Shown one piece after another: positions 16,890-64,000 of a stretch of 64,000 nt of DNA. The notes beneath the pieces are model-generated. The model saw only the letters and a program-made list of their open reading frames with translations, had not been told where the DNA came from and searched no databases. Source of the DNA: an uncultured Acidimicrobiaceae bacterium (GTDB lineage: Bacteria > Actinomycetota > Acidimicrobiia > Acidimicrobiales > Bog-793); the NCBI GenBank assembly GCA_963841155.1, contig CAWJBM010000005.1, positions 264,475 through 328,474 on the forward strand, read 5' to 3'. Both the position numbers and the translations under genes were made by a program. Position 1 is the stretch's first letter. The number at the start of each line of letters is the position of its first letter.

Positions 16890-19800
16890 CTAGCTTCTAC
16901 CGGCTCGGAATGCCTCAGGCCAACCGCCGTGCTGCTCGATCAACTGGTCAATCTGAACCATGACGCGCCCTGTCTCCCTGACACCCGCGACAATCCTTCC
17001 GTAATGTTTGATGTCCGCCTTAGACAGTGTTCGACCCCGGCGATCCTTGAGCCATTTCTCGCAGACTCGATAACCCCCAACCCGGAACTTCCAGACCGCC
17101 TCGTCCACCCCGCCAAAACCGTTACCGCTCGCCCCGGCGATCACATCGAGCCACACGCTACCGTCCGACCAACCCACGCGACCCACTACCGGATTCCTCC
17201 TACCGGTGTATGTGCAGCCTTTGTGGCCAAGCTTCGACGACTCCATAAGGTGCAGCGAAAGAAGTTCCTTGCCGAGCCGAACCAGCTCCTCAAACAGCCT
17301 TCGGTTCTCCGTTACGGGTATTCGTGGAAAGTCTAGCTGAAGAGCTAACCGAAAACGCCGCCTATACTCAGGCGAATTCAAGACGGCATAAACGTATGCA
17401 AACACATCGCCATCAGGAGGCTCTCTCCCGAGCCTTTCGCGAAACACAGCGATATCGAGATTAGAAGTCATTGGCGAAATCCCAGCACCAAAGGCGCCCA
17501 ACCCCCTTGGAACCCTCTGAGGAAAGGAATAGCAGTTAACCGAGCTTGTATTCGATAGAAAAATTACGTCGGCGAACGTTCGCGAAACGAACACGTGCGC
17601 GAAAACAGAATCCTTTACGATCTTCGTGGTCAGCAAGATCGGCGTTCCGTCGACACAAGATTTAAGCTTCGGCACCGCCCGCGTCCAAATCGCAGGATCA
17701 TAGTACGTGAAACGAGTGTCGAAAGGCCTATAAGAGTAGGGCACCACAGCGCTATCACGCAGCGGCCGATTGCTAGGTAAGTCTGCAAACTTCCGACCCG
17801 CCTCGGTCAGTTTATGTCCAGAAGCGATGGCCTCCGACCTCTTGAACTCACGAAGTTTCGCTATCACCTCCTCCGGCGAGAAGGAGACAAGTAGATCATC
17901 ATCCCCAGGCTTGCCGGATACGCTACAGAATCGGAATATGGCAGTCAAACTCGGATATTCACTGAATTCAGGCGTGAGGTCCCCGGCCCATGGGACAAGC
18001 AAGAAATACGGAGCGGTCGGTACGATACTTACAGATGACACTCCTCTCGCTGCGGAGAGCGCGTCATACTTGTACTTTCGTTCACCGACCAGTTCTGAGT
18101 ACTGAACTGCCTTATCGAAGGGTCCCTTCGACACCAAGCTAATAGCGACTCCCTGTAGAATGTCAAAGACGTTTTGATCTCCCACGCCTCTGCTACCAAG
18201 GAAGTCGACGTAACCACTGCCGTGTAGGTTGACAACATGGACGACCGCGTTGTCCATCAAAAGCTGTTCTCTCATTCCTCGGTGTATCCTGCCGGACAGG
18301 TACGTGTTATTGGTGATCATGCCGGATATGCCGAGACCTGACTGCGAAAGTAGGCGTTGCGCAAGCGCAATGAACTTAATGTAATCGTCAGAGAGCGGCT
18401 GGATATTCTTCTCTTCCTGAACGGCTTGCTTGTAGCTCTTGATTAATGCCGTGGCAAAGTTGCCCTTGTTCGCGGATGCTCGTGAATAGGGAGGGTTTCC
18501 GACGACAACCGTGAAGCGGCGGTCCCGCTTGATCTTGCTGACCGCCTCCGCTTCATGAGCAAGGGCCGGAATCGCAAACTCAAACTTCCCCGTGAAGTCG
18601 TAGGGAGGCTCAAGGGAATTCGTCAGGTAGATGCGAGCCCGCTGGTTGCTGCGGAAGCGATAGCCCGTCTCGTAAAGCTTCAACCCTGTCTTGAGGTGCG
18701 CTATCGCGTAGGGGGCCATCAGGAGCTCGTAGCCGTACAGGCGGGGCAGCAGGTGCTCCGGCACGTAGTCGTTCCATAACGTCTGGATCTTCCTCTCGTC
18801 ACACCCATCAGACTTCCACCTCGCGGTGAGCGTCTTGTGAATAACGTCGATTACCTCGACGAGGAAGGTGCCGGTTCCGGTGGCGGGGTCGAGAATCTGG
18901 ACGAAGGCTTGATCCGGGTTGACGCCAGTAGGAATCTGGAGCTCCTTGTGTAGCTTGGCCATCTCACGCCACGTGGTCGTGTCGGCAAGACCGTCCTCAA
19001 GGCCGAACTTTGTACGTAGCATTTCGTCTACAGAACGCACAATGAAGGCGACTACGGGCCGTGGAGTGTAGAAGACTCCTCGACTTACCTTTTGTTTCTT
19101 GTCGTAGGCGGCCAAGAAGTCCTCGTAGAAGTGGATGACAGGGTCCTCGTTAGGGTTCCTGTCCCCGAAGTCCCGAATGACTGCCTCCATGTTGGCGTCG
19201 TCGAGCAGCTCTACCACCTCGCCGACCCCCAACTCGTCGAAATCGATTGCAGGTCCATCAGTCTTCGTCCGCCGACCGCCTGTATAGAGGAAGGTCTCCA
19301 TCAACTCCTTGAGGAACGGATTGGTCATCGGCATCGCGAGAGCCGCGTCGTGCGCACGGTCTGTCTTTGGGTTGGCCACCCGCGCCGAGAGCAAGCCGTA
19401 CGCGATGGTCTGCGCGTACATGTCCGCGAAGCCAGGTTCGTCCAGATCGTGCACGAGAGCCTCGCGGAAAGCCGCCATCAGCTTGGTGAGCCGCCCATTC
19501 TTCGTCTCGATTGCCAGCGCTGTCTGGATGCGGTCTCGAATCGCGCGAGCGAGCACTGCCAAGCGGATCGACAGCTCACGAGAAGTCGTGATGACCTCGC
19601 GGTGTCGGACCGTGAAAGCTGCAGCCCAAGCAGCGCGCCATGACTCCACATTCCTGTCGTCATCGGGCCATGCGAGATCACGCACCAAATGATCGGCTAC
19701 GTCGTCCAGGTGCAGCAACGTATCGAGGTTGTCCCAGCCCAGAACCTTTAGCGTCGGCAGACTTTGTCTGGTCGCGTCCTCGGAAAAGTGTGCAAATGTT

Positions 19801-20192
19801 ATCTGGCGCTCCGAGCCCTCCCCGTAGTTGGAGATGAAGAGCAGATCGTTCACCGCCCACGCGGTGCGCTCCGCCTTATTGGCAGATGCACGCTTCTTGA
19901 GAGCCACCTGGCTGAGAATTCGTCGCAACGCAACTACAGGCAACCGCTTTGGTTCGAACTTGATGAAGAAGATTCCCCAGGGCTGGTTCACGGAAAGCGG
20001 ACGTAAGCGCTTTATCTCCTCGATCTTGGCTGCACTCTTCGCGTCGATCCCGAGTTCCTGGGCTGAGTACTCAAACGTCATCTCCTCGAAGTCAGCCGTA
20101 CCGATCGGCCAATCCATTTCATCGTGCAGAAATCGGAGCAGTTGGGGGAACGTACGAATCCTCTGCAGCTGAGCACGGTAGTTGCCTTGCAT
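16890..20192 (-). CDS. N6-adenine DNA methyltransferase / target-recognition protein of a split type ISP-like R-M system
   Basis: About 1100 aa from 'MQGNYRAQL'. SAM motif I 'ILDPATGTGTFLVEVI', motif IV 'VVVGNPPYS' (gamma-class order) and C-terminal 'LQLDFPRIPV...LGKELLSLHL', typical of type ISP/PglX-like C-terminal domains. Start is 4 nt after the helicase stop. Confidence 0.85.
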   Translation of the reverse strand: MQGNYRAQLQRIRTFPQLLRFLHDEMDWPIGTADFEEMTFEYSAQELGIDAKSAAKIEEIKRLRPLSVNQPWGIFFIKFEPKRLPVVALRRILSQVALKKRASANKAERTAWAVNDLLFISNYGEGSERQITFAHFSEDATRQSLPTLKVLGWDNLDTLLHLDDVADHLVRDLAWPDDDRNVESWRAAWAAAFTVRHREVITTSRELSIRLAVLARAIRDRIQTALAIETKNGRLTKLMAAFREALVHDLDEPGFADMYAQTIAYGLLSARVANPKTDRAHDAALAMPMTNPFLKELMETFLYTGGRRTKTDGPAIDFDELGVGEVVELLDDANMEAVIRDFGDRNPNEDPVIHFYEDFLAAYDKKQKVSRGVFYTPRPVVAFIVRSVDEMLRTKFGLEDGLADTTTWREMAKLHKELQIPTGVNPDQAFVQILDPATGTGTFLVEVIDVIHKTLTARWKSDGCDERKIQTLWNDYVPEHLLPRLYGYELLMAPYAIAHLKTGLKLYETGYRFRSNQRARIYLTNSLEPPYDFTGKFEFAIPALAHEAEAVSKIKRDRRFTVVVGNPPYSRASANKGNFATALIKSYKQAVQEEKNIQPLSDDYIKFIALAQRLLSQSGLGISGMITNNTYLSGRIHRGMREQLLMDNAVVHVVNLHGSGYVDFLGSRGVGDQNVFDILQGVAISLVSKGPFDKAVQYSELVGERKYKYDALSAARGVSSVSIVPTAPYFLLVPWAGDLTPEFSEYPSLTAIFRFCSVSGKPGDDDLLVSFSPEEVIAKLREFKRSEAIASGHKLTEAGRKFADLPSNRPLRDSAVVPYSYRPFDTRFTYYDPAIWTRAVPKLKSCVDGTPILLTTKIVKDSVFAHVFVSRTFADVIFLSNTSSVNCYSFPQRVPRGLGAFGAGISPMTSNLDIAVFRERLGREPPDGDVFAYVYAVLNSPEYRRRFRLALQLDFPRIPVTENRRLFEELVRLGKELLSLHLMESSKLGHKGCTYTGRRNPVVGRVGWSDGSVWLDVIAGASGNGFGGVDEAVWKFRVGGYRVCEKWLKDRRGRTLSKADIKHYGRIVAGVRETGRVMVQIDQLIEQHGGWPEAFRAGRS

Positions 20193-20196
20193 TGCC

Positions 20197-23100
20197 CTAC
20201 CCCTCGTTGAGTTCCATCCAGCACTTGAGCGCTGGCTTTGGCGCGTCGAGCGGGACATCGAGGCGCTTAAGGTAGGTGTTCTTAATGTGCTTCAGCACCG
20301 TGTCCCTCGCGTCCTTGAGGGCGTCCGCACCCGTGACACAACATCGAGGTGTGTTGGGCTTCGAGCGGATGCTCTCCAGGATGTCCCCCGGTACATCAAA
20401 GATTTCGCCGGGGTCAGAATCGCATAGGAACCAACTGGTCGGCCCTGCCTCTAGGGTGAATCTTCCAAGGTCGTGATCGAAGGCTGGCAAGGCGTAACAG
20501 AGGAAGACGCCACGCCTTCCTCGGGTTGGACGCTTCCGACCTGAGAACACCGAGCCCGGTAGGGCGTCGAGCCGGGCAACGAGAGTCTCGTCGTCGTTCA
20601 GTAGAGCCTGATACTCAAGGCGCATGTCCTCGACTGTGGTCTTCGTGCCCTCGTAACGAGCATTGAACTCTCTGAGGGCTTCGTAGTTGTCTTCAGGGGT
20701 CAGGAGCTTCCGACCCTCTATGCCAAAGGTCCTGGAGATCAGAAGCGTCTTCCGGGTGACTTGCGTGTAGAGGGAGAGAATGCCTTTCAGTTCATCGGGA
20801 GGAAGGAAGTTCCAAAACGCAACATGGCCGCGATCTTCGGCGATCTCGGGATGGTCCCTGATCAGAGCGGCCTCGATCACTGGGTCTAAGCGCCGGTCGA
20901 CTCGACCGATGCGTTGCATCAGTCGCACCGGGTTCCAGTGGATGTCGTAGTTGATGAGTCGGGTGGCGTCCTGAAGGTTCAAGCCCTCAGAGAGGAGGTC
21001 CGTGGAGATGAGGACACGAATCTCACTCTTACCCTGTCCAGCGAGAACTGCAGTACTTGACCGGTTGTAATAGGGCGAGAAACGCTTGATGACTTCGGTC
21101 CGGTCTGTCTTCGTGGCACTATCAATCTGGCTCACACCGAGGATGCCAGCGTTGGAGAGCTGACGTTCAAGGTAGCGAGCTGTATCGGCGAACTCTGTGA
21201 AGATGAGAACTTTTCGCCGGGCGAGATCTTTGCTCTTGAGCAAGCGGATCAGCTTCTGGACCTTGTCATCCTGCGCAGGCGTGAATTGCTGCGTGTGCTC
21301 AAGGAACTTAGCGATCTGATCGAGGTCGAGCATAGATTCCTGCAGCATCTCGCTGAGGTTGTACTCATCTGGAGGTAGGTGACGGACATCTTCAAGCAGT
21401 TCGGGCGACACAACGTCTTCATCGGCGTCTTCATCGGCGTCTTCCTCCTCGCCTCCCTCCGGCCAAAGGGTGAGCTGCGAATCGGGGTGATAGCCGATCA
21501 CGGCGGCGTGCTGACGCTTCCAACGGTCAAGACGGCTCTTTTCCGCTTCGGTTTCACTGTGGACCTGCACGAAGGCAAACAGCTTTCGAAGGAGGGTGTC
21601 CAGGGAGCGCTCGAAGGCATATACGGAACTCTCGAAGCGTTTTAGGAACTGGGTTCGGATCAGGCCCACCACCTGCCGCTGGCGGTTTTCTTCGCGTGGA
21701 TCGACGCTGTCGTCCGGGCCGATGTAGTAGGCCAACGGGTAGTACATCGGCAGCGAGAAAAGAGGGTTCTTCTTCTCGAACGCCTGCTCAAAGAGGTCGA
21801 GCACCTGCCCGTAGGACTTCCTCACTGAGTAGTCGGCTACCTGGGGCGGGCGACGCTCCGGGAAGACCGTCGCTGCACCCGTTTCTTGGATCTGGCTGGC
21901 CCGAGCGTAAGCCCGGCTTCGTTGAACGACGAGACTGCGAAAGATCACGTCTCCAGCCAGCACGTCGTGGGCTTCCTCTAGTAAGCCCTCCTGTTGGGCC
22001 TCGGGCGCGTCACCCAGTGAAAGCTGGAGCGTCTTGTCCATGGCCTTGAAGTGCGCGGTCAGGCTGTTCACGCCGAGAGTGCGTGCAAAGTAGGTCTCTT
22101 CGCGGCGGGTGAACAGTTCGGCCATGTGGCGAAAGTCGGAGAGCTGGTTGTTGATCGGCGTAGCTGTCAACATGTAGAGCGTCTTCTCGCGACCGCCGCC
22201 AAGGACGTCGTAGAGACGCCGATAGCGTGAGCGGCGGTCCCCATTTGTATCCGAGTCACCAGTTCGGCCTGGGTTCCGGAAATGATGTGCCTCGTCAATG
22301 ATCACAACGTCGGCAAGCTCGGTGACACGCGCAAACCGCTCTGGGAAGTCTCCCTTGCGATTCAGATCTGTGTGGCTAAAGACAGCTAAGTTGCTGAAAT
22401 CCGCGCCGCCTCCGATGCCACCGATGTGCGGCAACCGGTCCCGCAAGTGAGGTTCCCAGACACTCTCCTTGGCTCCCTTCGGCGCAAACAGGAGCACCCG
22501 CTTGTTCTCGTGCAGCACCAGCCTTTCGATAAGCATCAGGCCAACGAAAGTCTTGCCAAGCCCTACGCCGTCGCAAAGGAAGGCTCCGCCGAATTGTCGG
22601 GCGATCTTCATGAGCGACCCGTAGGCTTCTTTTTGGTAAAGGTCGAGCGCGGGAAACATCTTGGACTGGGTCTCGTCCCATTCCCCAGCCGTCAGCTCGT
22701 GGCCGCGGAAAAACTCGTGCAGCGCTTTCGCGTACACCTCAAATGGTGTGTGCTCCGCTGTGTGACGCGTGATGACGTGGAGAAGGTCCGGGGTGACGTC
22801 CTTGGCTTCGGACCAGTGTTGATCGAACCACGCCTGGAGCTGGGCAACCTCCCGGCTACTCTGGACTTGGATGTTGAGCTCGATGTTCTGGGTCAGCCCG
22901 GGCCGCGTGAAGTTGCTCGATCCCACGAGAGCCTGAGCACCGACCACTTCGAGCCGGGCGCGTGTGATGTAGGCCTTGGCGTGGAACTTCTCTTGGTTGT
23001 ATATCCGGCACTCGATTCGCCCGGTTTGCAGCGCGTGAACGATGGCATCCACGCCCTGGAGGAAGGGATTCTCGTGCTTCTCTTCCTCCAGGCTGACGTC

Positions 23101-23364
23101 AAGCCGCACCTTGGACCGCTTTCGAACTGCCTCCAAGAGCGCCTGCCTCGTCGGCCGGCTGAACTCATCCCCCATGAGGATTCGAATCTTGTCAAGTTTC
23201 TGCCAGTCGCTGTCGAGCTCCAGCAGCGCCCCAATCTCGAAAAACCCTGTGGCAATGTCGAAGCTGGTCGCGATCCCGCACCACTCGCGGAGGTACCTCA
23301 GGCCGGTCCAGCCAGAAATGCTGTTGTCGACGATGAAGAGGTCCCTGCCGGTCCGTTCAGCCAT
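20197..23364 (-). CDS. PLD-family nuclease fused to SNF2/SF2 helicase
   Basis: 1055 aa. N-terminal single HKD motif 'FHAKAYI...LVGSSNFT'. Helicase motif I 'DGVGLGKTF', II 'DEAHHFRN', VI 'QRIGRVDRR'. Confidence 0.85.
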   Translation of the reverse strand: MAERTGRDLFIVDNSISGWTGLRYLREWCGIATSFDIATGFFEIGALLELDSDWQKLDKIRILMGDEFSRPTRQALLEAVRKRSKVRLDVSLEEEKHENPFLQGVDAIVHALQTGRIECRIYNQEKFHAKAYITRARLEVVGAQALVGSSNFTRPGLTQNIELNIQVQSSREVAQLQAWFDQHWSEAKDVTPDLLHVITRHTAEHTPFEVYAKALHEFFRGHELTAGEWDETQSKMFPALDLYQKEAYGSLMKIARQFGGAFLCDGVGLGKTFVGLMLIERLVLHENKRVLLFAPKGAKESVWEPHLRDRLPHIGGIGGGADFSNLAVFSHTDLNRKGDFPERFARVTELADVVIIDEAHHFRNPGRTGDSDTNGDRRSRYRRLYDVLGGGREKTLYMLTATPINNQLSDFRHMAELFTRREETYFARTLGVNSLTAHFKAMDKTLQLSLGDAPEAQQEGLLEEAHDVLAGDVIFRSLVVQRSRAYARASQIQETGAATVFPERRPPQVADYSVRKSYGQVLDLFEQAFEKKNPLFSLPMYYPLAYYIGPDDSVDPREENRQRQVVGLIRTQFLKRFESSVYAFERSLDTLLRKLFAFVQVHSETEAEKSRLDRWKRQHAAVIGYHPDSQLTLWPEGGEEEDADEDADEDVVSPELLEDVRHLPPDEYNLSEMLQESMLDLDQIAKFLEHTQQFTPAQDDKVQKLIRLLKSKDLARRKVLIFTEFADTARYLERQLSNAGILGVSQIDSATKTDRTEVIKRFSPYYNRSSTAVLAGQGKSEIRVLISTDLLSEGLNLQDATRLINYDIHWNPVRLMQRIGRVDRRLDPVIEAALIRDHPEIAEDRGHVAFWNFLPPDELKGILSLYTQVTRKTLLISRTFGIEGRKLLTPEDNYEALREFNARYEGTKTTVEDMRLEYQALLNDDETLVARLDALPGSVFSGRKRPTRGRRGVFLCYALPAFDHDLGRFTLEAGPTSWFLCDSDPGEIFDVPGDILESIRSKPNTPRCCVTGADALKDARDTVLKHIKNTYLKRLDVPLDAPKPALKCWMELNEG

Positions 23365-52416: not shown

Positions 52417-52659
52417 ATGGCAATCGAGTCCCTCGACCTCATAGACGCCGACCCAGCGGTCGTGCACGGGCAGGCCCGGATTCGCGGGACCCGCATCCCG
52501 GTGAGCGTGATCCTCGACTACCTCGCCACGGGAATGACCGAGGAGCAGATTCGCGCCGAGTACCCGTCACTGCCTCGAGGCGCCGTCGCTGCCGCCCTTG
52601 CCTACGCGGCCCTTCTCGCGCGTGACGACCTGCACCCGCTCGAGCCTTCGCCGGGGTGA
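52417..52659 (+). CDS. DUF433 domain protein (antitoxin-like), partner gene absent
   Basis: 80 aa. 'DPAVVHGQARIRGTRIPVSVILDYLATGMTEEQIRAEYPSL'. Confidence 0.8.
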   Translation: MAIESLDLIDADPAVVHGQARIRGTRIPVSVILDYLATGMTEEQIRAEYPSLPRGAVAAALAYAALLARDDLHPLEPSPG

Positions 52660-53471: not shown

Positions 53472-53738
53472 TTGTATTACACTTATTGGGTGGAGGTCCA
53501 TCCGTCGGCTCGGCGCCACCAGGTCCCTGACGCAGACATCTCCCATGCCTACGAGCACGCCATCGCCTGGGTGGAACTGGACGACGATCCCTGCCGATAT
53601 CTGGTGGCCGGGCCCGACCGAGCAGGCATCCTCCTCGAGCTCGTCGTTCTTGAACTGCCTGACACCGTGCTCGTGATCCACGCCATGGCCCTGCGACGCT
53701 CAACTCGACACGAACTATTCGGAGACGAATCATCATGA
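53472..53738 (+). CDS. Small toxin-like protein coupled to an RHH protein
   Basis: 88 aa. 'HPSARRHQVPDADISHAYEHAI...LVIHAMALRRSTRHELF'. ATGA overlap with the downstream RHH gene. Family not recognised with certainty. Confidence 0.45.
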   Translation: MYYTYWVEVHPSARRHQVPDADISHAYEHAIAWVELDDDPCRYLVAGPDRAGILLELVVLELPDTVLVIHAMALRRSTRHELFGDESS

Positions 53739-54019
53739 CGAAGAGAACCTACGGACACACTCGAAGCGGTGAACCCATCGACGACGCCATGATCGGACGC
53801 CTTGCTGACGAAGCCGAAAAGGGCTACGAACCCGGTGAGCTGCTGGCCAAGCCCCGCGGCCGCGGACGCCCCCCTCTTGGCGAACTCGCAAAAGAAGTCG
53901 AATCTGTCCGACTCGACGTGCAACTACGAGACGAGACCACCCGGCGAGCCGCTCAGGAAGGCATCACCGTCTCGGAACTAATCCGTCGAGCGCTGCGGCA
54001 GTACCTCCGCGCAAGCTGA
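53735..54019 (+). CDS. Ribbon-helix-helix (CopG-like) protein, putative antitoxin
   Basis: 94 aa. C-terminal 'SVRLDVQLRDETTRRAAQEGITVSELIRRALRQYL'. Confidence 0.7.
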   Translation: MTKRTYGHTRSGEPIDDAMIGRLADEAEKGYEPGELLAKPRGRGRPPLGELAKEVESVRLDVQLRDETTRRAAQEGITVSELIRRALRQYLRAS

Positions 54020-54078: not shown

Positions 54079-54321
54079 TCAACGACGGTGACCGCTCTGA
54101 ATGGTCTGTGTCCCCCGATGGTCGCCCTGCCGTTCTGGATGGCGAGCACCGTCGAGCCAGGCGGCGATTTCGGCCGGGTCGAATCTGATGAACCAACCGA
54201 CCTTCAGGTAGGGCACCCTTCGTTCGGCGATGAGCCGGCGAATGTGGCGGATGCTCACCCCGAGCCGCTCGGCGAGCTGGTCGATGGTGAGGAGCTGGGG
54301 CAGGGCGTCAGTATTGGCCAT
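54079..54321 (-). CDS. Excisionase-family helix-turn-helix DNA-binding protein
   Basis: 80 aa. 'LLTIDQLAERLGVSIRHIRRLIAERRVPYLKVGWFIRFDPAEIAAWL'. Confidence 0.75.
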   Translation of the reverse strand: MANTDALPQLLTIDQLAERLGVSIRHIRRLIAERRVPYLKVGWFIRFDPAEIAAWLDGARHPERQGDHRGTQTIQSGHRR

Positions 54322-54484
54322 TGGTCTCCTTGAGCGTCGTGGTGTTGGGTGCAGACGAGGCCGGCGCCGACTGGATGACAGATGGTGACGAGCCTCTACT
54401 AAGGAGGCACTGGGGCGTCCAGGCTAAGTGCGCGCATCCCACCCGGACCCTCGTTCACCACCAGAACGCGGCCGTACCAAGTCG

Positions 54485-54784
54485 ATCAACCAAACACAAT
54501 GACATTCACCATCCTTCACCATCAATAACCTCTATCTACCAACTAACAACCCACTCACATCCTCACCCATTTCCTCGCCCTTCCCCCTTCCATTAACCCA
54601 CTCCTCTCATTCCCTCTTTCCCCATCACCATCGCCATCTTCCCGCTTCACACTCTCCATCCACTCTCTCCTCCCCACTCGAACAACTTTCCCATTCACCA
54701 TCACTTACCTTCCTTGACCTCTTTCTACCCAACATCAAACAACCCCTTTACTTCACCTCCATTCCTGCTATAACCACAAACCAA
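54485..54784 (+). other. About 300-nt G-depleted (C/T/A-only) tract upstream of the relaxase gene
   Basis: My manual count gives about 7 G in 300 nt on the + strand, in a genome that is otherwise G+C-rich. Contains four '(T/A)TCACCATC' copies (54505, 54515, 54624, 54694). Multiple in-frame stops in all + frames. Confidence 0.8.
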
Positions 54785-54795
54785 GAGGAACACGT

Positions 54796-55115
54796 TTGCA
54801 ACTTTCAGTTGGCGAGGAGGTAGTGCGCGTGGCGTGGATGCGGATGATGGGAGCCGACTCTGTCGACTACCACGAGCACACCGTCGCCGGCCGCGGTGAC
54901 GACCCGGTCGCTGCCTCCGGTGAGTACTACGCCTCGCGAGGAGAGACTCCGATGTCCTGGGGAGGCTCCGGGCGCGGGCTGCTCGGCCTGGCCGGTGAGG
55001 TGGACATCGCTGATTACAGGGCCCTCTTCGGCATCGGTGGTGCCCACGACCCTCGCACCGGCCGGCGTCTCGTGGGCTGCCTGCGTCCCGGTCTGGAGCT
55101 CGTGGTCTCCCCTCA
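54796..55115 (+). pseudogene. MobF (TrwC/TraA-type) relaxase, 5' fragment upstream of the RIT insertion
   Basis: 'MGADSVDYHEHTV...GEYYASRGETPMSWGGSGRGLLGLAGEVDIADYRALFGIGGAHDPRTGRRL...LELVVSP', then the reading frame runs into the RIT end. Confidence 0.75.
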
Positions 55116-55224
55116 TTTATGCCGCGCTCGGCATAAGGAGATTTATGCCGAGTTGTTGATTATGCCGAGTAGACGCACGAATGTCCCGAGTTTCGGGGGG
55201 AGCCGGTCCGAGGAGTCGGCATAA

Positions 55225-56214
55225 TCACAGCGAGTCCAAGAAGGCGAGCAGCGCGTCCGGAGGACGGTAGCGGCCCGGTGGCGTGCCGGGTGGGGCGGCA
55301 AGAGCGAGCGCCCGCTCCTTCATAGCGAGGTCGGCGTGGAGGTAGATCTGCACCGTCGAGAGCTGCTCGTGCCCGAGCCAGAGCGCGATGGTCGAGATGT
55401 CCACGCCTCCTTCACGAAGAAGCATTGCGCACGTGTGCCTCAGCACGTGGGGGGTGACGTGCTTTGCGCCAAGCGACGGGCAGCGTTGCCCGGCCACATC
55501 GGCGTGACGCGCCACGAGAGACTGGACGGCGTCGGAGCTGAGCGGCCCTCCACGGCGACTGGGGAACAGCGGGTCCGCCGGGTCACCCTGGCGCTCGTCG
55601 AGCCAGATGGCGAGCGCCGCTACTGCGTCCGGCCCGAGTGGTGTGACGCGCTCCTTGCGTCCCTTGCCGAGGCATCGCACGTGCGCACCTCTCGAGAGCA
55701 CGACGTCTGTGCAGCGCAGCCCGGTGAGCTCCCCGAGTCGCAAGCCCGTGTGCACCGCGAGCATGAGCAGGGCATGATCGCGCCGTCCGCACCAGCAAGA
55801 GCGATCGGGAGCAGCCAGCAACGCCTCGACCTCGGGGCGGGTGAGGAAACAGACCACCGCCCGCTCGAAGCGCTTCTGCGGGATCGCCAGCACGCGCTGG
55901 ATCGATGCCCCATGTTCGGGGTGGGAGAGCGCGGCGAAGCCGAACAAGGCGCGGATGGCGGCCAGGCGGGCATTGCGTGTCCGGGCGCTGTTGTTCCTCT
56001 GGCGCTCGAGGTGCTCAAGGAACGCCCCGATGAGTGGAGCGTCGAGATCGGCCAGGTCGAGCTCCTGTGGCGGGCGGCGGGTCCGTTCCGAGGCAAAGCG
56101 GACGAGCAGCCGGATGGTGTCGCGATATGAGGCGACGGTGGCTGGGCTCGCCTCTTGCTGGAGGGCGAGCCTCGTCGTGAAGAACGCCTCGAGAGTCGGC
56201 GCGAGGCGGCTCAC
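55225..56214 (-). CDS. Tyrosine recombinase, third gene of the trio (RitC-like)
   Basis: 329 aa. 'TGLRLGELTGL', 'TPHVLRHTCAMLL', 'WLGHEQLSTVQIYLH'. Confidence 0.85.
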   Translation of the reverse strand: MSRLAPTLEAFFTTRLALQQEASPATVASYRDTIRLLVRFASERTRRPPQELDLADLDAPLIGAFLEHLERQRNNSARTRNARLAAIRALFGFAALSHPEHGASIQRVLAIPQKRFERAVVCFLTRPEVEALLAAPDRSCWCGRRDHALLMLAVHTGLRLGELTGLRCTDVVLSRGAHVRCLGKGRKERVTPLGPDAVAALAIWLDERQGDPADPLFPSRRGGPLSSDAVQSLVARHADVAGQRCPSLGAKHVTPHVLRHTCAMLLREGGVDISTIALWLGHEQLSTVQIYLHADLAMKERALALAAPPGTPPGRYRPPDALLAFLDSL

Positions 56215-57137
56215 CTGAGACCCCCGAGCGTCCGAGCGGCTCGGGCCCGGGCGACTTCCATCAGCTCGGGCACCGCTTCCAAGTACCAGTAGGTGGACGA
56301 AGGGTTGGCATGGCCGAGCACCTTGGACAACAAGGGCATCGCCCGATCGACGTCGACACCGTCGCGGTGCCAGTCCATCAGCGTGTTCACGGCGAAGCTA
56401 TGGCGAATGTCGTGCAGACGAGGGCGCCGCCGCCCACCTCGCGCCTCGATCCCGGCGCTTGTCACCAGCTCGGCGAATGTGTGATCGGCGCTGCAGGACG
56501 CCAGACAGTTGCCGGCGAGGCTGACGAGCAGAGTCGGCGACGCCGCCTGCGGGGCGAGCCGCTCGCGGAGCTCTCGATAGCGAGCCAGCGCCGTGAGAGT
56601 GCTCGCGCTGAGGGGGACCTCCCGCTCCGGTGAACGCTTGTGGGGACGGACCGCCAGGCACGAGCAGTCGAAGTCGACGTCACTGGGCAGGAGTCGGGCC
56701 GCTTCGCCGAAACGGATCCCGCTCACCGACAGCAGCCCGATCAAGACCTCGTAGGTGGCGGCGCGAAGCAGAGGCGAGAGCCTGGCCGCGGCGGCCATCA
56801 AGGCACCGATCTCTGCGTCCGAGTAGATGTGGGGCGTGAGCCGCGAGTACCGCCGTGGCAGCAGGTCCGGCGTAGGCACCTCGGTCCTCTCGTCGAAGGC
56901 AACGAGGTACTTGGCGAACCCGCGCACTGCCCCGAGCCGCTGGCTGCGCGTGACGGGCAGTGAGCCCGGAGAGTCGTTGGCCCATGCCAGCGCCTGCTCG
57001 GTGGTGACATGGTCAGCACCTGATCGCTCCATGAAGGCGACGAAGCTCACCAGCAAGTGGTTGCACTCGTTGGCGACGTAGCCGAGCGAGCGCCGCAGGA
57101 CGGTGTACTCGGCGAGGTGTTCTTTGAGCTCGCTCAC
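56211..57137 (-). CDS. Tyrosine recombinase, second gene of the trio (RitB-like)
   Basis: 308 aa. 'SGIRFGEAARL', 'LHDIRHSFAVNTL', 'LGHANPSSTYWYL'. 4-nt overlaps on both sides. Confidence 0.85.
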   Translation of the reverse strand: MSELKEHLAEYTVLRRSLGYVANECNHLLVSFVAFMERSGADHVTTEQALAWANDSPGSLPVTRSQRLGAVRGFAKYLVAFDERTEVPTPDLLPRRYSRLTPHIYSDAEIGALMAAAARLSPLLRAATYEVLIGLLSVSGIRFGEAARLLPSDVDFDCSCLAVRPHKRSPEREVPLSASTLTALARYRELRERLAPQAASPTLLVSLAGNCLASCSADHTFAELVTSAGIEARGGRRRPRLHDIRHSFAVNTLMDWHRDGVDVDRAMPLLSKVLGHANPSSTYWYLEAVPELMEVARARAARTLGGLR

Positions 57138-58390
57138 CGCGCTCCTCCCGGCCAGTACCGTGCGAGCGCAGCGACGGTCGGTTGGGGGACGTCGACATAG
57201 ACCGTCGTCATCGAGAAGTGGTGGTGGCGAAGCACCTCGGCGATCCCGACGAGCGCAGTGCCTGTCCGGTGCATCTCGCTCGCTGCGTGCTGGCGCAGGC
57301 GCCTTGGCCCGAAGGGCACAAAGCCCGCCCTGCGGGACGCGTTCTGGACGACGGACTGCACGCCGACGAAGTCAAGGCGAGTCCATGGAGCCCTCGCCCG
57401 AAGGAACACCTCGCGGAACTCCTGGCGTCGCGGTCGACCTCTGTGCAGGTAAGCGGCAATGGCAGCCCCGACGTCTGGTGGAAGGGGCATGCGCTCGTGC
57501 CGGTCGCCCTTGCCGCGCACGAGTATCTCGCCGTGGTGCCAGTCGATGTCGTCGAGGGTGAGCGCCGCCACCTCGCAAGGCCTGAGCCCGAGCCGGCTGC
57601 ACAGCAGTATGACCGCGTAGTCACGCCGCCCCGCCGCCCGCCGCCGGTCACAGCTCGCGAGCAGACGGGAGATCTCGCCCTGGCTGAGCGCAGGGGGCCG
57701 CGGCGCGGGGCGTTGCCGGGCGAGCTTGGGAACGGCTGATGCCACAGCGCTGGTGACCATCCCCTCGACCTGTAAGAACCGCAGAAGCGACGAGGTCGAC
57801 AAGACCGCTGAGCGTGCGGTGCTGGCGGTCGCATCTCGGCAGGTCTGGACTACATAACAGGTGACATCACAGGCTCGCAGCCCCGTCAGTTCGCGCCGAT
57901 CGCCAAGGACGGAGTCGAGGAATCGGCGAGCGCCCACGAGATGTGCCACCACGGTCTTTTCCGCCAGCCCCCGCTCGTGCACGAGGTAGCTCCGATACGA
58001 CGCGAGCAGATCGCCGAAGCGTCCAGCGTCATCGGGCCGTTCCGGGACGACCCCGGCGCCACGCAGGTAGGTGAGCGGCAGCCGCATCGTGAGCGGGCTC
58101 GTCAATGTGGACCGCCCGCGGGCGGTCCGCCAGTCAGCAAAGCAAACGGCAGTCGACTCGTCGAGATCGCAGGCTCGGAGGCCTTCCGACGCCAGCCACG
58201 AGCTCACGCCGGCGAAGTAGGTGAGCCGCTGCTGCACGCTCCAGAAGGTGTATCCGCGCGCCTCGAGGTGGCGTCGATAGCCGTCCGCGTAAGGTCCGAG
58301 GGGACCTGGAGGTGTCTGGAACCTGTGCTCTCTCATCGCTTCCTCCATCTCGGACCGTCGGTCCGTTAGGAGAAAGCTTCGGGTGAACAC
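57134..58390 (-). CDS. Tyrosine recombinase, first gene of the trio (RitA-like)
   Basis: 418 aa. 'LGLRPCEVAALTLDDIDW', 'LRQHAASEMHRTG', 'LRHHHFSMTTVYV'. Confidence 0.85.
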   Translation of the reverse strand: MFTRSFLLTDRRSEMEEAMREHRFQTPPGPLGPYADGYRRHLEARGYTFWSVQQRLTYFAGVSSWLASEGLRACDLDESTAVCFADWRTARGRSTLTSPLTMRLPLTYLRGAGVVPERPDDAGRFGDLLASYRSYLVHERGLAEKTVVAHLVGARRFLDSVLGDRRELTGLRACDVTCYVVQTCRDATASTARSAVLSTSSLLRFLQVEGMVTSAVASAVPKLARQRPAPRPPALSQGEISRLLASCDRRRAAGRRDYAVILLCSRLGLRPCEVAALTLDDIDWHHGEILVRGKGDRHERMPLPPDVGAAIAAYLHRGRPRRQEFREVFLRARAPWTRLDFVGVQSVVQNASRRAGFVPFGPRRLRQHAASEMHRTGTALVGIAEVLRHHHFSMTTVYVDVPQPTVAALARYWPGGAR

Positions 58391-58488
58391 CCGCGATTAT
58401 GCCGAGCTGCTCATCTGATCCGCTTCCCAAAGCAGGCACGATGTCGACGACTCAGCGTCTAGTCGGCACAATCACCAACTCGGCATAA

Positions 58489-61296
58489 CCTCACAAATCA
58501 GTGGCAGAGCTCGGGGTGATCGGACGCGCCGAGGACATGCACGAGATCGTCGACGCCGAGCGCGACGCCACTCTTCAGTACCTGGACCGTCTCGTCGCCG
58601 AACAAGGTGGCAGGCGTGGACGTGCTCAGACCCGCGTCGCCACTGGTGGGCTTATCTGGGCGACCTCCCGGCACGCGACGACCCGGGCTGGCGATCCCCA
58701 GGTGCACGAACATGTCCTGATCGCGAATGCCGTGTTGATGCGAGACGCCCGCGGAGGGTGGAAAGGCGCCGACACGGCGTTCTTGCGCGACCACCTGCAT
58801 GCGGCGACGGCCGTCGGACGTATGGCCGCTGCCGCCAAGGCGGTCAAGCTCGGATACGGGATCGTCGCCGACCCGGGCCCGTCCGGGCGGCTCGGAGGAT
58901 GGGCGATCGCCGGCATCCCGGACGAGGTCTGTGAGCTGCACTCCACCCGCTCTGCGCAGATCACCGCCGTGGTCGGACCGGATGCCTCGTATGCGGCACG
59001 GTCGGTCGCGGCCCGGGCCACGCGGGGCCGCAAGGCGGAAGTCCGCGTAGAGGACCTGTTGACCCGCTGGCAGGACGAGCTGACCACTGCTGGTCATCCC
59101 CCGGCCGATCTCCTCGCTGAGATCGAGGCGGCGGGTTCCACCTATGAGCTCCCGGAGGTCGACCTCGAGCAGCTCGCCGGAGAACTACTCGGCCCGGACG
59201 GGCGCCTGGCGGAAGAGAAGACCTTCACCCGAGGCGACGTGATCATCGCCGCCGCTCCGCACCTTCACGGCCAGCCCCTTTCTGCGCTCGACAAGGCCGT
59301 CGAGACAGTCCTCGCGAATGACGACACGGTCGCCCTGCCGGTCGTGACGGGGAGCAGGGAGCAGGTCTGGACGGCACGCTGTGTCCTCGCCGACGAGGAG
59401 CGCATCGCAACTGTGGCTGAGTCACTGACTGACGATGACGGGCCGAAGGTCGAAGAACAGGCCGCTCTCGATGCTGTCACCCTGCTCGAGGAGCACCTCG
59501 GCGTCCCGCTCACCACCGCCCAGCACGAGGTGGCGATCGGACTCATGGTGAGTGGGCACCGTTTTGATCTCGTCATGGGTGTAGCCGGATCCGGGAAGAC
59601 AACGACGCTGGCGGCGGTCCGCGAGGGTTTCGAGAGCGCCGGTTACACCGTGCTCGGCACCGCGACCTCGGGACAAGCAGCCAAGAACCTCGGAGACGGC
59701 GCCGGGATCGAGTCGCGCACCATTGCCTCGCTTTCCTGGCGGCTGGACCACAACACACTCGAGCTCTCCGACCAGCACGTGCTGATCCTCGACGAGGGCG
59801 CCATGACCTCAGATATGGACCTCGCCCGTCTTCTCACCGCGGTCGAGCGATCGGGGGCAAAGCTGATCGTCGTAGGAGACGACCGCCAGCTCGGTGCCAT
59901 CGGTCCTGGCGGCGCACTCACCGCCCTCGCCGAACGCCACCCCGAGCAGCTCTGGGCGCTCACCGACAACCTGCGCCAGACCAATCCCGCCGAACGCGTC
60001 GCGCTCTGTGAGCTCCGAGACGGCAACATCGCCGCGGCGGTCGGCTGGTATGCCCGCAACGGGCGGGTCCATCCCGTGCCCGACCGCCGGCGAGCGGTCA
60101 CCGGCATGATCCGTGCCTGGGCGGCCGACATCGACGCCGGACAGGACCCCCTACTTCTCGCCTACCGACGCGACAACGTCGAGACGCTCAACCGCGCTGC
60201 TCGAAACCTCTGGGAACGGTCCGGGAGGCTCACCGGCCCCGAGCTCGTAGCACCCGGCGGGCGCACCTACCGGGCCGGGGACCGGGTCATCGCCCTTGCC
60301 CCAGGACCTCAAGGCGCCTGGGTCACGTCACAAGCTGCCCAGGTCACCGCCGTCGATCCTGAGGCCCAGACCCTCACTGCGATCACGCCCGACGGCCGCC
60401 AGCTGCACATGGGCGCCGATGACATCGGCGCGGACCACCTCGGCTACGGCTACGCCATCACCGCTCATCGCGTCCAGGGCACGACGGTCGAAGTCGCGCA
60501 CGTCCTCGACGACGGCGGTGGCCGGGAGCTCGCCTATGTGGCCATGAGCCGCGCGAGGAGCACCAGCCACGTGTACACCACCGCACCGGACCTCGACCAA
60601 GCCGCCCAACGCCTCACCTGGTCCTGGGATGACGAGCGCCGCCAGCAATGGGCCACTGACCAGGCCCGGGCCGCCCAGCATCTCGTCGAGCTTCGTGCCG
60701 AGCACAGAGAACTCGTCGGGAGCATCCCGCCTGACGTCACCGACCAGCTTGCTCACGTCCACGAACAACAGGCCGCGCTCGAAAAGGACCTTGCCGACCT
60801 CCGGACCGGCGCCGGGCGGTGGGCGAAGACACCCGTTCGACCTAGCTACGAGGATCTCCAACTTGCGCGCAGAGCTCACGAAGAGATCCTCCGCCGCGTC
60901 CAAAATCCCCGCCGTGGACTCCTCGCCCGGCACCGGAGCCGCGATGACCTCAAGACCAGTGCCGCCACCCTGCAAGCGGCCGAGCGTGCCTGGCAGCGCA
61001 CGACCGAACCTCACGCTCGGCTTATCGAGGGCGAGCGGTCACGGCTCACCACCGAGGAGTGCCGTTTAGAACAAGCACGGCAAGCAAGAGCAGAGTTCAT
61101 CGAGACCAAACCTGAGCTCATCGACCGGCTCAACCAACTGCACCGAGCCAGCCAGATTGCGCTGACCAGCTCACATTCCCATCGTTCCGCCGGCAGGAGT
61201 GTCCCGGCACCGTCCTTTAGCGGCCAGTCGCGGGATGCGGCGCTCGCGCACGAACCCCTCCCACTGCCCGCGGAACTCTTTGGTCGGGATCCCTAA
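58489..61296 (+). pseudogene. MobF relaxase-helicase, 3' portion downstream of the RIT insertion
   Basis: 'HKSVAELGVIG', histidine triad 'SRHATTRAGDPQVHEHVLIAN', RecD-like helicase 'GVAGSGKTTTL', 'VLILDEGAM', 'ITAHRVQGTTVE'. Confidence 0.8.
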
Positions 61297-62031: not shown

Positions 62032-63378
62032 TCAGACGCGCCAGGACGGCAGTACGGCCTCCGCCAATGAAACTGGGAGAGTTTCACCGATCCAGTATCG
62101 CCAGCGGAACCACCGCACTCGATCGACGACCGCCCATATCAAGAGCAAGAGTCCGACGACAGTCGGTCCGATCCAAGGAAGCACCGCGATGGCCGCCTCG
62201 CCGTTGCTCTGGTCGAGAAGGAAGCGCAACCCACGGTTAGCGCGAAGTGCGAATATTGCTATACCTGGCCGCTGCATGTCGAGGGAGAAGACGCCTTCGT
62301 AGGTCTCACCCTGCTCAGAGAGCCTGTCGCTGCTCGGATCGTTCGTCACATGCACGTCAGTCCCCGCCGATGACCTGACATGCAGCATCGACGACGCGGT
62401 CTCGGCGCAAACTGAGTTCGGACAACGAAGGAAGACGACATAGTGTCCTGCAGGCAAGGAAAGCCGAACACTCCCGTGATCGGGGATCAGCTTGGCGTTG
62501 CCAAAGTAACTCTGAAGGTGGACAACGATGAGCCCGCCGCCTAGGCCGGCTCCAGCTCCGGCGAGCAACAGGACCACGAACAGGGTGCCAGCCCTCATAA
62601 CGTACGGCGGCCTTGGCTCTACTGGCCCAGGCCATGGCTCGCTTCCGCCCCATTGCGCGGTCTGGTCTTTTCTCAGGCGACGCCGCCGTGCCCACTCACC
62701 GAAGGCCATCATCGTGGCTATCGAGATGAAGACCAGAGAAACTCCTAGAAACAGTCGGCTCTGCAAGGCGAGGTCGTGCAGATAAGTGGTCCGCGAAACG
62801 GAGATGAGCCAGCCATGGTCATCCAGGTAGTAGTGGTGACCCACGGCGTGGTACTCGGGTTGCCCGGCGAGACTGTGGAAGGAGGATTCGAAGCCAAATA
62901 CTCCGAGGATTACGAAGATCGGAACGACAACGTAGCTGGCACGGGGCATGAGGCGAAACATTCGCAACTGCGATTGCAGGCCGGCCGAAATGTCAAAACG
63001 CCGGGTCCCCTCTCGTCGCAGGACTCCCCGGCTCCCAAGCGCGTAGAACATCCCGAACCAGAGAGGGAAGACCAGTGCGAAGAACGGCGCGAACTCGGCG
63101 CTTCCCAGCCCGACGTCGCCGGGCAGGAATGTCAGCATATAGAGGGCCGTAGCAAAGAGGAGGGCGAGCAATCCGACTACGGCTGCCAATGCGTTGAGAC
63201 CGGAGACCAGCGGAGTGTCGAACACCCGGATGCGCCGACCCTGAGAGTCCATCGGCTGGCTGGACCACGCCACGCGTGGAGTCTCGCGCAGAACTACATG
63301 GCTTCTGAATTTGCCTGGATTGCTCTGACGGCGAGAACTCGCAAGGCGCGTTCCGGAGCAACGCATCGAGGAGCTCAC
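62032..63378 (-). CDS. Hypothetical polytopic membrane protein (element cargo)
   Basis: 448 aa. At least 6 hydrophobic segments plus a soluble domain 'GNAKLIPDHGSVRLSLPAGHYVVFLRCPNSVC'. Confidence 0.55.
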   Translation of the reverse strand: MSSSMRCSGTRLASSRRQSNPGKFRSHVVLRETPRVAWSSQPMDSQGRRIRVFDTPLVSGLNALAAVVGLLALLFATALYMLTFLPGDVGLGSAEFAPFFALVFPLWFGMFYALGSRGVLRREGTRRFDISAGLQSQLRMFRLMPRASYVVVPIFVILGVFGFESSFHSLAGQPEYHAVGHHYYLDDHGWLISVSRTTYLHDLALQSRLFLGVSLVFISIATMMAFGEWARRRRLRKDQTAQWGGSEPWPGPVEPRPPYVMRAGTLFVVLLLAGAGAGLGGGLIVVHLQSYFGNAKLIPDHGSVRLSLPAGHYVVFLRCPNSVCAETASSMLHVRSSAGTDVHVTNDPSSDRLSEQGETYEGVFSLDMQRPGIAIFALRANRGLRFLLDQSNGEAAIAVLPWIGPTVVGLLLLIWAVVDRVRWFRWRYWIGETLPVSLAEAVLPSWRV

Positions 63379-63466: not shown

Positions 63467-64000
63467 TCAGCCCAGAGCGGTGAGCCCGCCGAGGACTTGA
63501 TCGACGGCGTTCCTCGTCTCGTCGTCGCTGTCGGGCCACAGATGCCCATAAGTGTCGAGCGTCTCCATGGCCGATTGGTGGCCGAGGCGCTCTTGGACGG
63601 CCTTCACTGAACATCCCCGGGAGATGAGGAGCGAGGCGTAGAAGTGCCTCAGGTCGTGGAACGTGGCCCACGCCGGCAGGTTCGCCTGCAGGGCTGCGCG
63701 ATGCCACATGTCCCCCAGCGTGTTGCGCCGCAGGGGGCGACCGAACGTGTTGGTGAACACCAACCCCGCTGGTCCCGGTCCGTGTCGGGCCAGATGCTCG
63801 GCCAGCGTGGCGCACACGACCTCGGGCATCGGCACGGTGCGAAAGCCGGCTTTGCTCTTGGGGGGACCGAATGTGGGCACTCCCCCGAGGGCGGAGGTGA
63901 GCTGGCGGTCCACCCGCACATGCCGGCGCAGGAAGTCGACGCGATCGACGGTGAGCCCGAAGCATTCGCCCTGGCGCAGTCCCATTGCGGCGGCGAAGAC
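63467..64000 (-). CDS. int: Tyrosine site-specific integrase (C-terminal part; gene continues beyond the window)
   Basis: '[18 protein letters not shown]', 'FRTVPMP', 'FHDLRHFYASLLI', 'LGHQSAMETLDTYGHLW'. Confidence 0.85.
   Translation of the reverse strand, partial: VFAAAMGLRQGECFGLTVDRVDFLRRHVRVDRQLTSALGGVPTFGPPKSKAGFRTVPMPEVVCATLAEHLARHGPGPAGLVFTNTFGRPLRRNTLGDMWHRAALQANLPAWATFHDLRHFYASLLISRGCSVKAVQERLGHQSAMETLDTYGHLWPDSDDETRNAVDQVLGGLTALG

Follow-up and report, generated by a model that had tools for sequence, protein, structure and literature searches.

The 64-kb stretch of DNA from an uncultured Acidimicrobiaceae bacterium analysed here (the window) contains a 300-nt tract, at positions 54485–54784, that is almost devoid of G on its plus strand. 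The tract fills the spacer between a divergently oriented excisionase-like (xis-like) gene of the HTH_17/excisionase type and a gene for a TrwC/MobF relaxase, as the original prediction had placed it (Table 1). It is a real, highly non-random feature that is conserved within a clade of related elements, and it probably functions at the level of DNA, as part of an origin of transfer (oriT) and regulatory region. More tentatively, and by analogy with known MobF systems, the tract may serve a small integrative mobilisable element as the accessory part of its oriT, acting as DNA rather than RNA and providing a structure-free zone for unwinding and loading.

Composition and physical state of the tract

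Direct counting gives 7 G, 136 C, 80 T and 77 A among the 300 positions; the minus strand is correspondingly nearly free of C. The seven G residues stand at 54501, 54577, 54633, 54644, 54680, 54716 and 54767. The window as a whole contains 31.5% G, and the binomial probability of seven or fewer G in a given stretch of this length (n = 300, p = 0.315) is approximately 1e-38. An earlier estimate of about seven G in 300 nt is thus exact, and scans of G fraction and GC skew across the window rule out a normal G content. Only one region of the 64 kb (54447–54811) has less than 10% G per 100 nt, and no comparably C-poor counterpart region exists anywhere in the window. Inside the tract are the five longest stretches without G in the window (75, 55, 50, 35 and 35 nt), the longest elsewhere being 24 nt. 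GC skew reaches −0.90 in the tract, and GC content is about 48%, as opposed to 65% for the window.

The tract does not encode protein, as had been proposed: no open reading frame (ORF) of more than 49 amino acids lies wholly inside it on either strand, and the insertions and deletions that distinguish the tracts of relatives are not multiples of three. These two observations rule out a coding sequence. The word TCACCATC occurs four times on the plus strand, at 54506, 54516, 54625 and 54695, with the first two copies in tandem at a 10-bp period, exactly as originally described; the window holds 10 copies in total, against 1.7 expected. A regular tandem array was considered and rejected, since TRF finds only a 1.9-copy 10-bp repeat and spectral and autocorrelation signals are weak. 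A permissive Rfam search over 52–57 kb returned nothing relevant and no known RNA family at the tract, a blastn search in distant mode found no DNA match among the PLSDB plasmids, and a consensus scan for promoters and terminators found nothing in the tract.

The physical consequences of this composition are pronounced. Whether stability is calculated over 100, 200 or 300 bp, no other duplex in the 64 kb is as unstable as the tract, which has −1.36 kcal/mol per bp compared with a mean of −1.59 (standard deviation 0.06). When folded as single-stranded DNA (ssDNA), each 150-nt half of the tract yields only 0 to −0.2 kcal/mol on both strands, whereas the flanking 150-nt segments reach −26 and −31 kcal/mol. 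The segregation of G onto one strand and C onto the other therefore produces the duplex that is easiest to melt in the window, and neither of the separated strands folds on itself. A DNA unwinding element is recognised by the lowest local helical stability adjoining an initiator site; the tract has this stability minimum, next to the candidate site described in the following section.

A probable nic region at the 3′ edge

The tract ends 3–4 nt before a short conserved core, GAACACGNTT, beyond which lies a hairpin; this arrangement is found across relatives of 57–100% relaxase identity. Over the same range, GAACACGNTT is nearly invariant, with single-base variants in a few loci. The invariant motif at the core is 10–11 nt long and occurs once in the window, and conservation ends abruptly on the tract side of GAACACG. 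Compensatory changes are evident in the hairpin: its inner pair is C:G in 10, G:C in 4 and U:A in 3 of 18 sequences (RNAalifold), and the stem variants comprise CAACT/AGTTG, CAACC/GGTTG, CAACG/CGTTG, ACAACC/GGTTGT, GCAAGC/GCTTGC and an 8-bp form, GCAAGGGG/CCCCTTGC. A conserved segment 3′ of the hairpin is present on the minus strand only, where CAACTGAAAGTTG is followed by CAAACGTGTTC. On the relaxase side, GTGGCGTGGATGCGGATGATG, in the region of the Shine–Dalgarno sequence and relaxase start, is nearly invariant across loci; the distance from the 3′ end of the tract to the probable start codon is 44 nt.

A MobF-type oriT has an inverted repeat 5′ of a conserved nic sequence and adjoins the gene for a TrwC/TraI-type relaxase. 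Both features are present here, and their orientation fits the minus strand only.

A promoter-like element for the relaxase gene, with its −10 hexamer at 54769–54774, lies inside the 3′ end of the tract. In the general form TTTACA/T-16/17-TGn-TAWAAN, the element keeps a fixed distance of 13–15 nt, on the upstream side, from the GAACACG core; this holds for clades with relaxase identities as low as about 70%. The TTTACA/T-16/17-TAWAAN element also occurs in two further loci (L006 and L014) and in clades that have no tract; the comparison of clades did not show it in the clade of 61–64% identity. In all clades the −10 is without the usual final T, and hence a simple consensus scan missed it. From its conservation across clades, we infer a promoter role for TTTACT-16-TGcTATAAC. 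The core, the hairpin and the promoter-like element at the 3′ edge of the tract together constitute a probable nic region, in keeping with the original view that the tract occupies the oriT or promoter region of a MobF relaxase.

On the opposite side of the tract, a candidate −10 hexamer (54421–54426) is suitably placed to be part of the promoter of the excisionase-like gene; it is conserved in 96% of the tract-bearing sequences and takes the form TAGCNT in the clade of 80–86% relaxase identity. Between 54400 and 54830, no minus-strand −10-like hexamer was found within the tract or to its right. Upstream of the tract, no convincing plus-strand promoter was found. With the relaxase promoter-like element at its 3′ end and the sole minus-strand −10-like hexamer to its left, the tract itself is probably untranscribed. 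A function that distinguishes between the two strands of the DNA is then the most economical reading, as the original prediction of a single-strand-specific function had suggested, because the tract appears not to be transcribed.

Phased repeats and a variable spacer

Within the tract, two 52-nt direct repeats, termed DR-L (distal to the relaxase gene) and DR-R (proximal), are 73% identical according to a repeat search. The ACC triplets of the TNACC words in each repeat are spaced by exactly 10 bp, and two such four-ACC arrays were obtained in none of 5000 shuffles. Among 27 unique tracts, the individual ACC triplets are kept in 22–27, while the second base of TNACC varies freely. In relatives without a tract, the homologous proximal array contains G, in words such as TGACCG or TGTCCG. 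DR-L also holds remnants of the promoter part, including a single G; position 54577 corresponds to 54767. The two conserved arrays, each of four TNACC words at 10-bp spacing and close to an excisionase-family gene, are candidate sites for an accessory protein.

The spacer between the repeats behaves differently from the arrays. The anchor distance from DR-L to DR-R ranges from 113 to 226 nt among relatives, yet G in the spacer is steady at about 2–3%; what has been kept in the spacer is composition rather than sequence. Similarity between the middle spacer and the repeats is not detectable, although the spacer, too, is G-free. DNA looping that would bring DR-L and DR-R together in helical phase was rejected, as the distances (113–226 nt) are not multiples of the helical turn.

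Distribution among relatives

Related loci were gathered from two sources. Scanning species-representative genomes turned up 17 loci, each of them in an Acidimicrobiia or Actinomycetota metagenome-assembled genome, and a metagenome scan with relaxase alignment added 80 more, with 61–100% identity over the relaxase domain. At relaxase identities of at least 88%, nearly all loci have a tract of 220–337 nt. At 80–86% identity the tract measures about 110–120 nt, at 79% it is 266 nt long in one locus and 60 nt in another, and below about 78% it is absent. The expectation of similar tracts upstream of orthologous relaxases thus holds for the close homologues and fails for the distant ones. Control C-poor segments reach only 11–42 nt. 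In 569 kb of related loci, such tracts are found at the relaxase-upstream position only, the extras being an inverted copy in L005 and the two halves of a split tract in L011.

GC skew over the 200 nt upstream of the core is −0.90 at relaxase identities of at least 88%, −0.48 at 79–86%, −0.15 at 68–78% and −0.20 at 57–64%, against a locus background of 0 ± 0.09. Skew of the same sign is also seen in three distant MobF plasmids of Clavibacter (L098, pCM2), Curtobacterium (L099) and Cryobacterium (L100), where the corresponding 200-nt values range from −0.32 to −0.44; in each of these plasmids, the minimum of the 5.5-kb locus falls exactly upstream of the mobF relaxase gene. By these comparisons, the tract is the extreme of a wider tendency to skewed composition upstream of MobF genes. 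In the same three plasmids, the skewed region is followed by a common motif, GTCACACCTCNGGCATTA...GAGGTA, with an inverted repeat, and this may be their nic region.

Acquisition of the full tract is accompanied by a change in spacing: the intergenic distance is about 320–370 nt in the 80–86% clade, whose tract is about 110 nt long, and about 520–540 nt in the full-tract clade. Natural variants are also informative. In L042 (93% relaxase identity, relaxase start at 2344), the whole tract has been cleanly deleted, with the 5′ flank ...CACCACCAGA joined to TCCAAGAGGAACACG; the core and hairpin are retained and the promoter-like element is lost. In L018 and L019, the relaxase N-terminus is 100% identical to that of the window and the tract nearly so; 32 bp (ACACGTTTGCAACTTTCAGTTGGCGAGGAGGT; aligned to 54790–54821) are deleted. 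This deletion, which is bounded by GAGGA repeats, removes the core, the hairpin and the Shine–Dalgarno sequence. In L011, an IS3-family element with a two-ORF transposase (4516–5806) lies within the tract and splits it; in L012, a DDE-transposase element (3815–5243) lies between the xis-like gene and the tract; and in L040, the intergenic distance of 1749 nt probably reflects an insertion sequence. Many copies of the element are probably no longer mobile.

Two further loci have unusual arrangements. At the start of its contig, L005 (1–532) carries a second, inverted copy of the tract (C-poor at 1–226) and a partial xis-like gene (410–532, plus strand), about 1.2 kb from the main copy; two element ends here lie head to head. 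In L015 (6001–9055), the relaxase gene is fragmented, with no match for residues 26–255 and the other pieces out of frame, and the tract and core are well preserved. This locus was rejected as proof of deep conservation; its relaxase is a fragmented pseudogene, for which a figure of '53% identity' is not meaningful.

Is the avoidance of G maintained?

Substitutions were reconstructed by parsimony on 26 tract sequences, with 296 changes in 168 columns of the well-aligned ends. Changes toward G are fewer than their strand-symmetric partners, with 4 T>G against 33 A>C and 35 A>G against 49 T>C; the 5′ flank does not have the same asymmetry. The difference between T>G and A>C is not expected from strand-symmetric neutral mutation. 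Changes toward G greatly outnumber those away from it (56 against 13), while G makes up 2.9% of the bases; this excess fits either the selective removal of G variants or decay from a G-free ancestor. Deamination of C on an exposed minus strand was rejected as the sole cause, as the plus strand has no excess of A (77 A and 80 T).

The history of the tract can be read in part from homologous positions, which carry G in relatives without a tract (TGACCG), fewer G in the 80–86% clade and almost none in the tract clade. By this gradation, the purging of G began in place, before the duplication. Part of the length of the tract appears to have come later, from duplication of a module that was already poor in G, as the growth in intergenic distance and the promoter remnants in DR-L indicate.

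Proposed role in conjugative transfer

In the proposed mechanism, a small DNA-binding protein would occupy the TNACC arrays, where it may organise the relaxosome and control the adjoining relaxase promoter; the likeliest candidate is the excisionase-like protein, whose gene is divergent. The relaxase would recognise the covarying hairpin and CAAACGTGTTC on the minus strand and nick at about 54789–54799. In solved MobF systems, namely TrwC of R388 and TraI of F, the relaxase binds a hairpin together with 8–9 single-stranded nucleotides 3′ of it, and nicks there. The conserved segment 3′ of the hairpin is on the minus strand only, as in these systems, and the minus strand is therefore the putative nicked and transferred strand.

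After nicking, the minus strand would leave 5′ to 3′ leftwards into the tract, so that the first 300 nt or so to be transferred would consist of G, A and T only. The tract could then be the structure-free zone in which the 5′ to 3′ helicase domain of the relaxase loads onto the transferred strand, and the coupling protein of a helper element may load there as well. Located between two divergent promoters, the tract would also gather negative supercoiling when both fire. In F and R388 the relaxase operon enters the recipient last, and transfer of the minus strand would likewise place the relaxase gene last.

That structure-free strand opening or loading is the property under selection is a reading which we prefer, with less than even confidence. 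A broader form of it is more doubtful still, namely that exclusion of cytosine from the first few hundred nucleotides of the transferred strand is a selected design principle of MobF oriTs in high-GC Actinomycetota. Such a zone would melt easily and be unable to fold on either strand, and it would be the loading site of either the relaxase helicase or a hijacked coupling protein, or else protect the entering end; the Acidimicrobiia clade would then represent the extreme case, and the milder skews of its relatives and of the Microbacteriaceae plasmids the common one.

Several points weigh against a role as unwinding and loading zone. The choice of strand is drawn by analogy with other systems, and nicking, transfer and protein binding are predictions. 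An unwinding zone needs low stability and not a strict absence of G, and the model does not account for this strictness. The tract looks as if it was partly built by duplication of a G-poor module, and part of its composition may thus be historical. As the −10 of the relaxase element lacks its usual last T, both the promoter assignment and the untranscribed state of the tract are inferred from sequence. Relatives below about 78% identity manage without a tract and the close relative L042 has lost it, which indicates that the tract is not essential for the existence of the element. Finally, the decayed copies, including the interrupted relaxase gene in the window, the deletion in L018 and L019, and the insertion sequences in L011 and L012, make the current function of the copy in the window doubtful.

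Alternative explanations

The alternative that survives best, although we regard it as rather unlikely, is that the region is regulatory only. A duplicated operator and promoter module, composed of the TNACC arrays, would control the divergent promoters of the excisionase-like and relaxase genes, and the shortage of G would be a functionless by-product, inherited from a G-poor module and perhaps reinforced by local strand-biased mutation. DR-L and DR-R are indeed copies of one module, with DR-L keeping promoter remnants that include the G at 54577, and the growth in intergenic distance between the two clades is close to the 189-nt spacing of the repeats. In addition, about 19% of inferred changes are toward G, and with a pairwise divergence of about 18% a G content of 2–3% is roughly that expected from neutral decay from a G-free ancestor; L042, moreover, is without a tract. 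Against a purely regulatory origin, the graded loss of G across clades indicates that purging in place preceded the duplication, and the middle of the spacer is G-free in spite of having no detectable similarity to the repeats. Nor are 4 T>G against 33 A>C changes expected under strand-symmetric neutral mutation, and the plus strand lacks the excess of A that deamination of C on the minus strand would give. The recurrence of skew of the same sign in an unrelated group of MobF plasmids is a further point against this alternative.

An RNA-level function appears improbable. In this case, rightward transcription would yield a C-rich, G-free, unstructured RNA that serves as a Rho-utilisation (rut) site or leader, and either stops read-through before the nic region and relaxase gene or attenuates relaxase expression. 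A C-rich, G-poor composition defines rut sites, and the tract, with 45% C and 2% G over 300 nt, has the composition, the absence of structure and the length (at least about 70 nt) of such a site. By analogy with the ssDNA folding, its RNA could not fold; the hairpin directly after the tract might act as a pause site; and C-rich words such as CTCCTCCCC can pair with the region of the relaxase Shine–Dalgarno sequence, with which they form an inverted repeat. However, it is at the 3′ end of the tract and not upstream of it that the clades share a promoter-like element, an arrangement that also argues against the leader RNA of the original prediction; no convincing plus-strand promoter was found upstream; and the upstream gene is divergent, which leaves little co-directional transcription to stop. 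The words resembling an anti-Shine–Dalgarno sequence are not conserved, with CACCTCC, CACATCC and CACCCAC at the same site, and arrays phased at exactly 10 bp point to recognition of double-stranded DNA.

Less probable still is a role for G-quadruplexes or R-loops, both raised in the original prediction, whereby minus-strand quadruplexes or a leftward G-rich RNA would hold the transferred strand open and recruit a quadruplex-binding coupling protein. Extreme GC skew is a classical predictor of R-loops, and the value of −0.90 would fit one; some 25-nt windows also score 1.5–2.2 in G4Hunter. Among conjugation proteins, TrwB and TraB are reported, in the accounts cited here, to bind quadruplex DNA (PMC8152469; PMC7434980; for TrwB, Matilla et al. 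2010 as cited in PMC8152469), and a short G-rich sequence, a predicted quadruplex, is required in the oriT of pIGRK (PMC8152469; PMC7434980). Loading of DNA into the transfer channel by quadruplexes is a hypothesis cited in PMC13478746. The complementary strand of the tract is indeed G-rich and does contain GGG and GGGG runs, as had been pointed out, but these are fewer than the composition predicts: in each of the 29 unique tracts, runs of at least three G number fewer than in composition-matched shuffles (mean z −1.7). The canonical motif, with loops of up to 7 nt, is present in just one of the 29, and a relaxed motif, with loops of up to 12 nt, in 21, no more often than in shuffles (52–99%); the mean G4Hunter score is about 0.9. 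The tract does not qualify as a G-quadruplex element on these counts, and selection for quadruplexes was rejected. As for an R-loop, including the R-loop-primed origin that had been suggested, no minus-strand −10-like hexamer in the tract or to its right (54400–54830) would drive a G-rich RNA.

It is very improbable that the leading 300 nt are kept free of C, and their duplex free of palindromes with G or C, as an evasion of single-strand cytosine deaminases or restriction in the recipient. If the transferred strand has been assigned correctly, the tract would enter ahead of all other DNA; defence pressure is known to shape leading regions (PMC13478746), and a duplex with G on one strand cannot hold a palindrome that includes G or C, but only 300 nt would be protected in an element of otherwise normal composition, and no candidate defence system was identified.

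Comparison with known systems

The closest parallels to an oriT with a structure-free loading zone are the MobF oriTs of R388 (TrwC, TrwA) and F (TraI, TraY, TraM), which, like the tract locus, lie directly upstream of the relaxase operon. They share an inverted repeat on the 5′ side of a single-stranded recognition sequence that is conserved on the transferred strand (here a predicted one), direct repeats for a small accessory DNA-binding protein (here putative), an easily melted region that adjoins nic, a promoter that overlaps the nic region, and a relaxase gene that is transferred last (as would be the case here). The relaxase of the tract locus is only about 30–33% identical to the closest plasmid MobF/TraI relaxases. 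Its candidate nic site also adjoins a melting region that, unlike those of R388 and F, is not AT-rich; at about 48% GC, it keeps G and C on separate strands for 300 nt. In the literature searched, no long tract that flanks an oriT and lacks one base is described.

The low stability of the tract next to the presumed site of a strand-specific initiator and helicase is reminiscent of DNA unwinding elements at replication origins. In contrast to these, the tract is neither AT-rich nor furnished with repeats of the 13-mer type; low stability is attained without CG or GC steps, and self-complementarity is lost on both strands. Rut sites likewise are C-rich, G-poor and unstructured, with conservation of composition rather than sequence; the tract is about 3–4 times longer and far more extreme, carries phased arrays suited to recognition as double-stranded DNA, and is apparently upstream of a promoter and not within a transcript.

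Micro-filaments of the lambda Xis type form on phased direct repeats, and in the tract locus, too, an excisionase-family gene adjoins arrays of short direct repeats one helical turn apart. The locus differs from lambda in having two four-site arrays 113–226 bp apart without conserved mutual phasing, at an oriT and promoter instead of an attachment site, and binding here is putative. In the Klebsiella plasmid pIGRK, the minimal oriT likewise has a G-rich element that is asymmetric between the strands and immediately precedes the relaxase promoter; it is reported to be needed for transfer there (PMC8152469). That element is short and a predicted quadruplex, whereas the tract is 300 nt long, almost without canonical motifs and depleted in G-runs.

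The presumed mobilisable element and its surroundings

Judging by gene content, the host of the tract is probably a small integrative mobilisable element that belongs to a new family in Acidimicrobiia. L004 has, in this order, a xis-like gene, the tract, the relaxase, a cargo gene and an integrase, with no genes for a mating pore or coupling protein; direct repeats that might mark attachment sites were looked for in L004 and not found. Most related loci have the excisionase-like gene upstream of their relaxase gene, even some that have no tract. In the window, the right end of the element lies beyond the 64 kb. The features of the element are listed in Table 1.

Table 1. Features of the tract, its borders and the surrounding element in the window.
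Feature	Position	Strand	Remarks
Excisionase-like gene (80 amino acids), divergent from relaxase	54079–54321	−	Pfam HTH_17, E = 9e-11; NCBIfam 'excise' TIGR01764, E = 7.5e-11
Candidate −10 TAGCCT of excisionase-like gene	54421–54426	−	Sole minus-strand TANNNT in 54400–54830
Distal direct repeat DR-L	54503–54554	+	Four TNACC words; ACC at 54508, 54518, 54528, 54538
C-rich, G-free spacer	54555–54691	+	Length variable, sequence fast-changing; partial third repeat copy at about 54616–54632 (repeat search)
Proximal direct repeat DR-R	54692–54743	+	Four TNACC words; ACC at 54697, 54707, 54717, 54727; just upstream of −35
Relaxase promoter-like element	54747–54774	+	−35 TTTACT at 54747–54752, 16-nt spacer, TGc and −10 TATAAC at 54766–54774
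Core GAACACGTTTG (minus strand CAAACGTGTTC)	54788–54798	−	Candidate nic-recognition sequence on putative transferred strand
Hairpin (inverted repeat) CAACT-TTC-AGTTG	54799–54811		Adjoins core; compensatory changes
Shine–Dalgarno sequence and N-terminal part of relaxase	54814–55115	+	GAGGAGG at 54814–54820; probable GTG start at 54829; Pfam TrwC, translation
Three-recombinase insertion in relaxase gene	55116–58493	−	Three Phage_integrase proteins (329, 308 and 418 amino acids)
Remainder of relaxase	58494–61296	+	Rest of TrwC domain, E = 2e-31; AAA_30 helicase domain, E = 2e-51 (Pfam)
Tyrosine integrase gene	63467–63985	−	Pfam Phage_integrase, E = 3e-21; probably the element's own integrase

A 3.4-kb insertion that looks like an element of the recombinase-in-trio type interrupts the relaxase gene of the window. 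Each of its two junctions has CCTCA, and the insertion contains a 34-nt terminal inverted repeat as well as repeated TTATGCCGAG words. Joining position 55115 to 58494 restores the reading frame and yields a relaxase-helicase of 1032 codons, with a DPQVHEH histidine motif and N-terminal tyrosines. In relatives, the gene is uninterrupted.

Between the relaxase and the integrase lies an ORF of 448 amino acids (62032–63378, minus strand), which has no match in Pfam, NCBIfam or among Protein Data Bank (PDB) sequences and offers no clue to a primase or replication function; it may be spurious, or else encode a novel protein with a cargo or maintenance role. Left of the element, the window consists mostly of ordinary chromosome. 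A DUF433 gene (52417–52659) and a ribbon-helix-helix gene (53735–54019) are found just left of the element. The latter was considered as a source of the accessory protein and set aside, as it accompanies the element only in the window and in L007; it probably represents host DNA at the flank, or a variable end. Further away, the region 13424–23364 harbours an IS21-type IstB ATPase (14911–16002), a Type ISP restriction-modification gene (16890–20258) and a PLD-nuclease/helicase gene (20197–23364), and looks like an island of defence and mobile DNA unrelated to the tract.

Significance

How relaxase-helicases gain access to ssDNA at an oriT, and how mobilisable elements compete for helper machinery, are poorly understood. 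If the composition of the tract is a by-product, the finding reduces to a well-annotated oriT and promoter region of integrative mobilisable elements that represent a new family in Acidimicrobiia. The graded series of relatives, from normal composition to extreme skew, and the natural deletion variants constitute a ready-made comparative system, in which the strand composition of the leading end can be examined for an effect on nicking, on unwinding, on loading or on survival in the recipient. In uncultured high-GC bacteria, a hairpin and a conserved core with a sharp local GC skew beside them would also provide a simple signature by which oriTs may be oriented and the transferred strand predicted.

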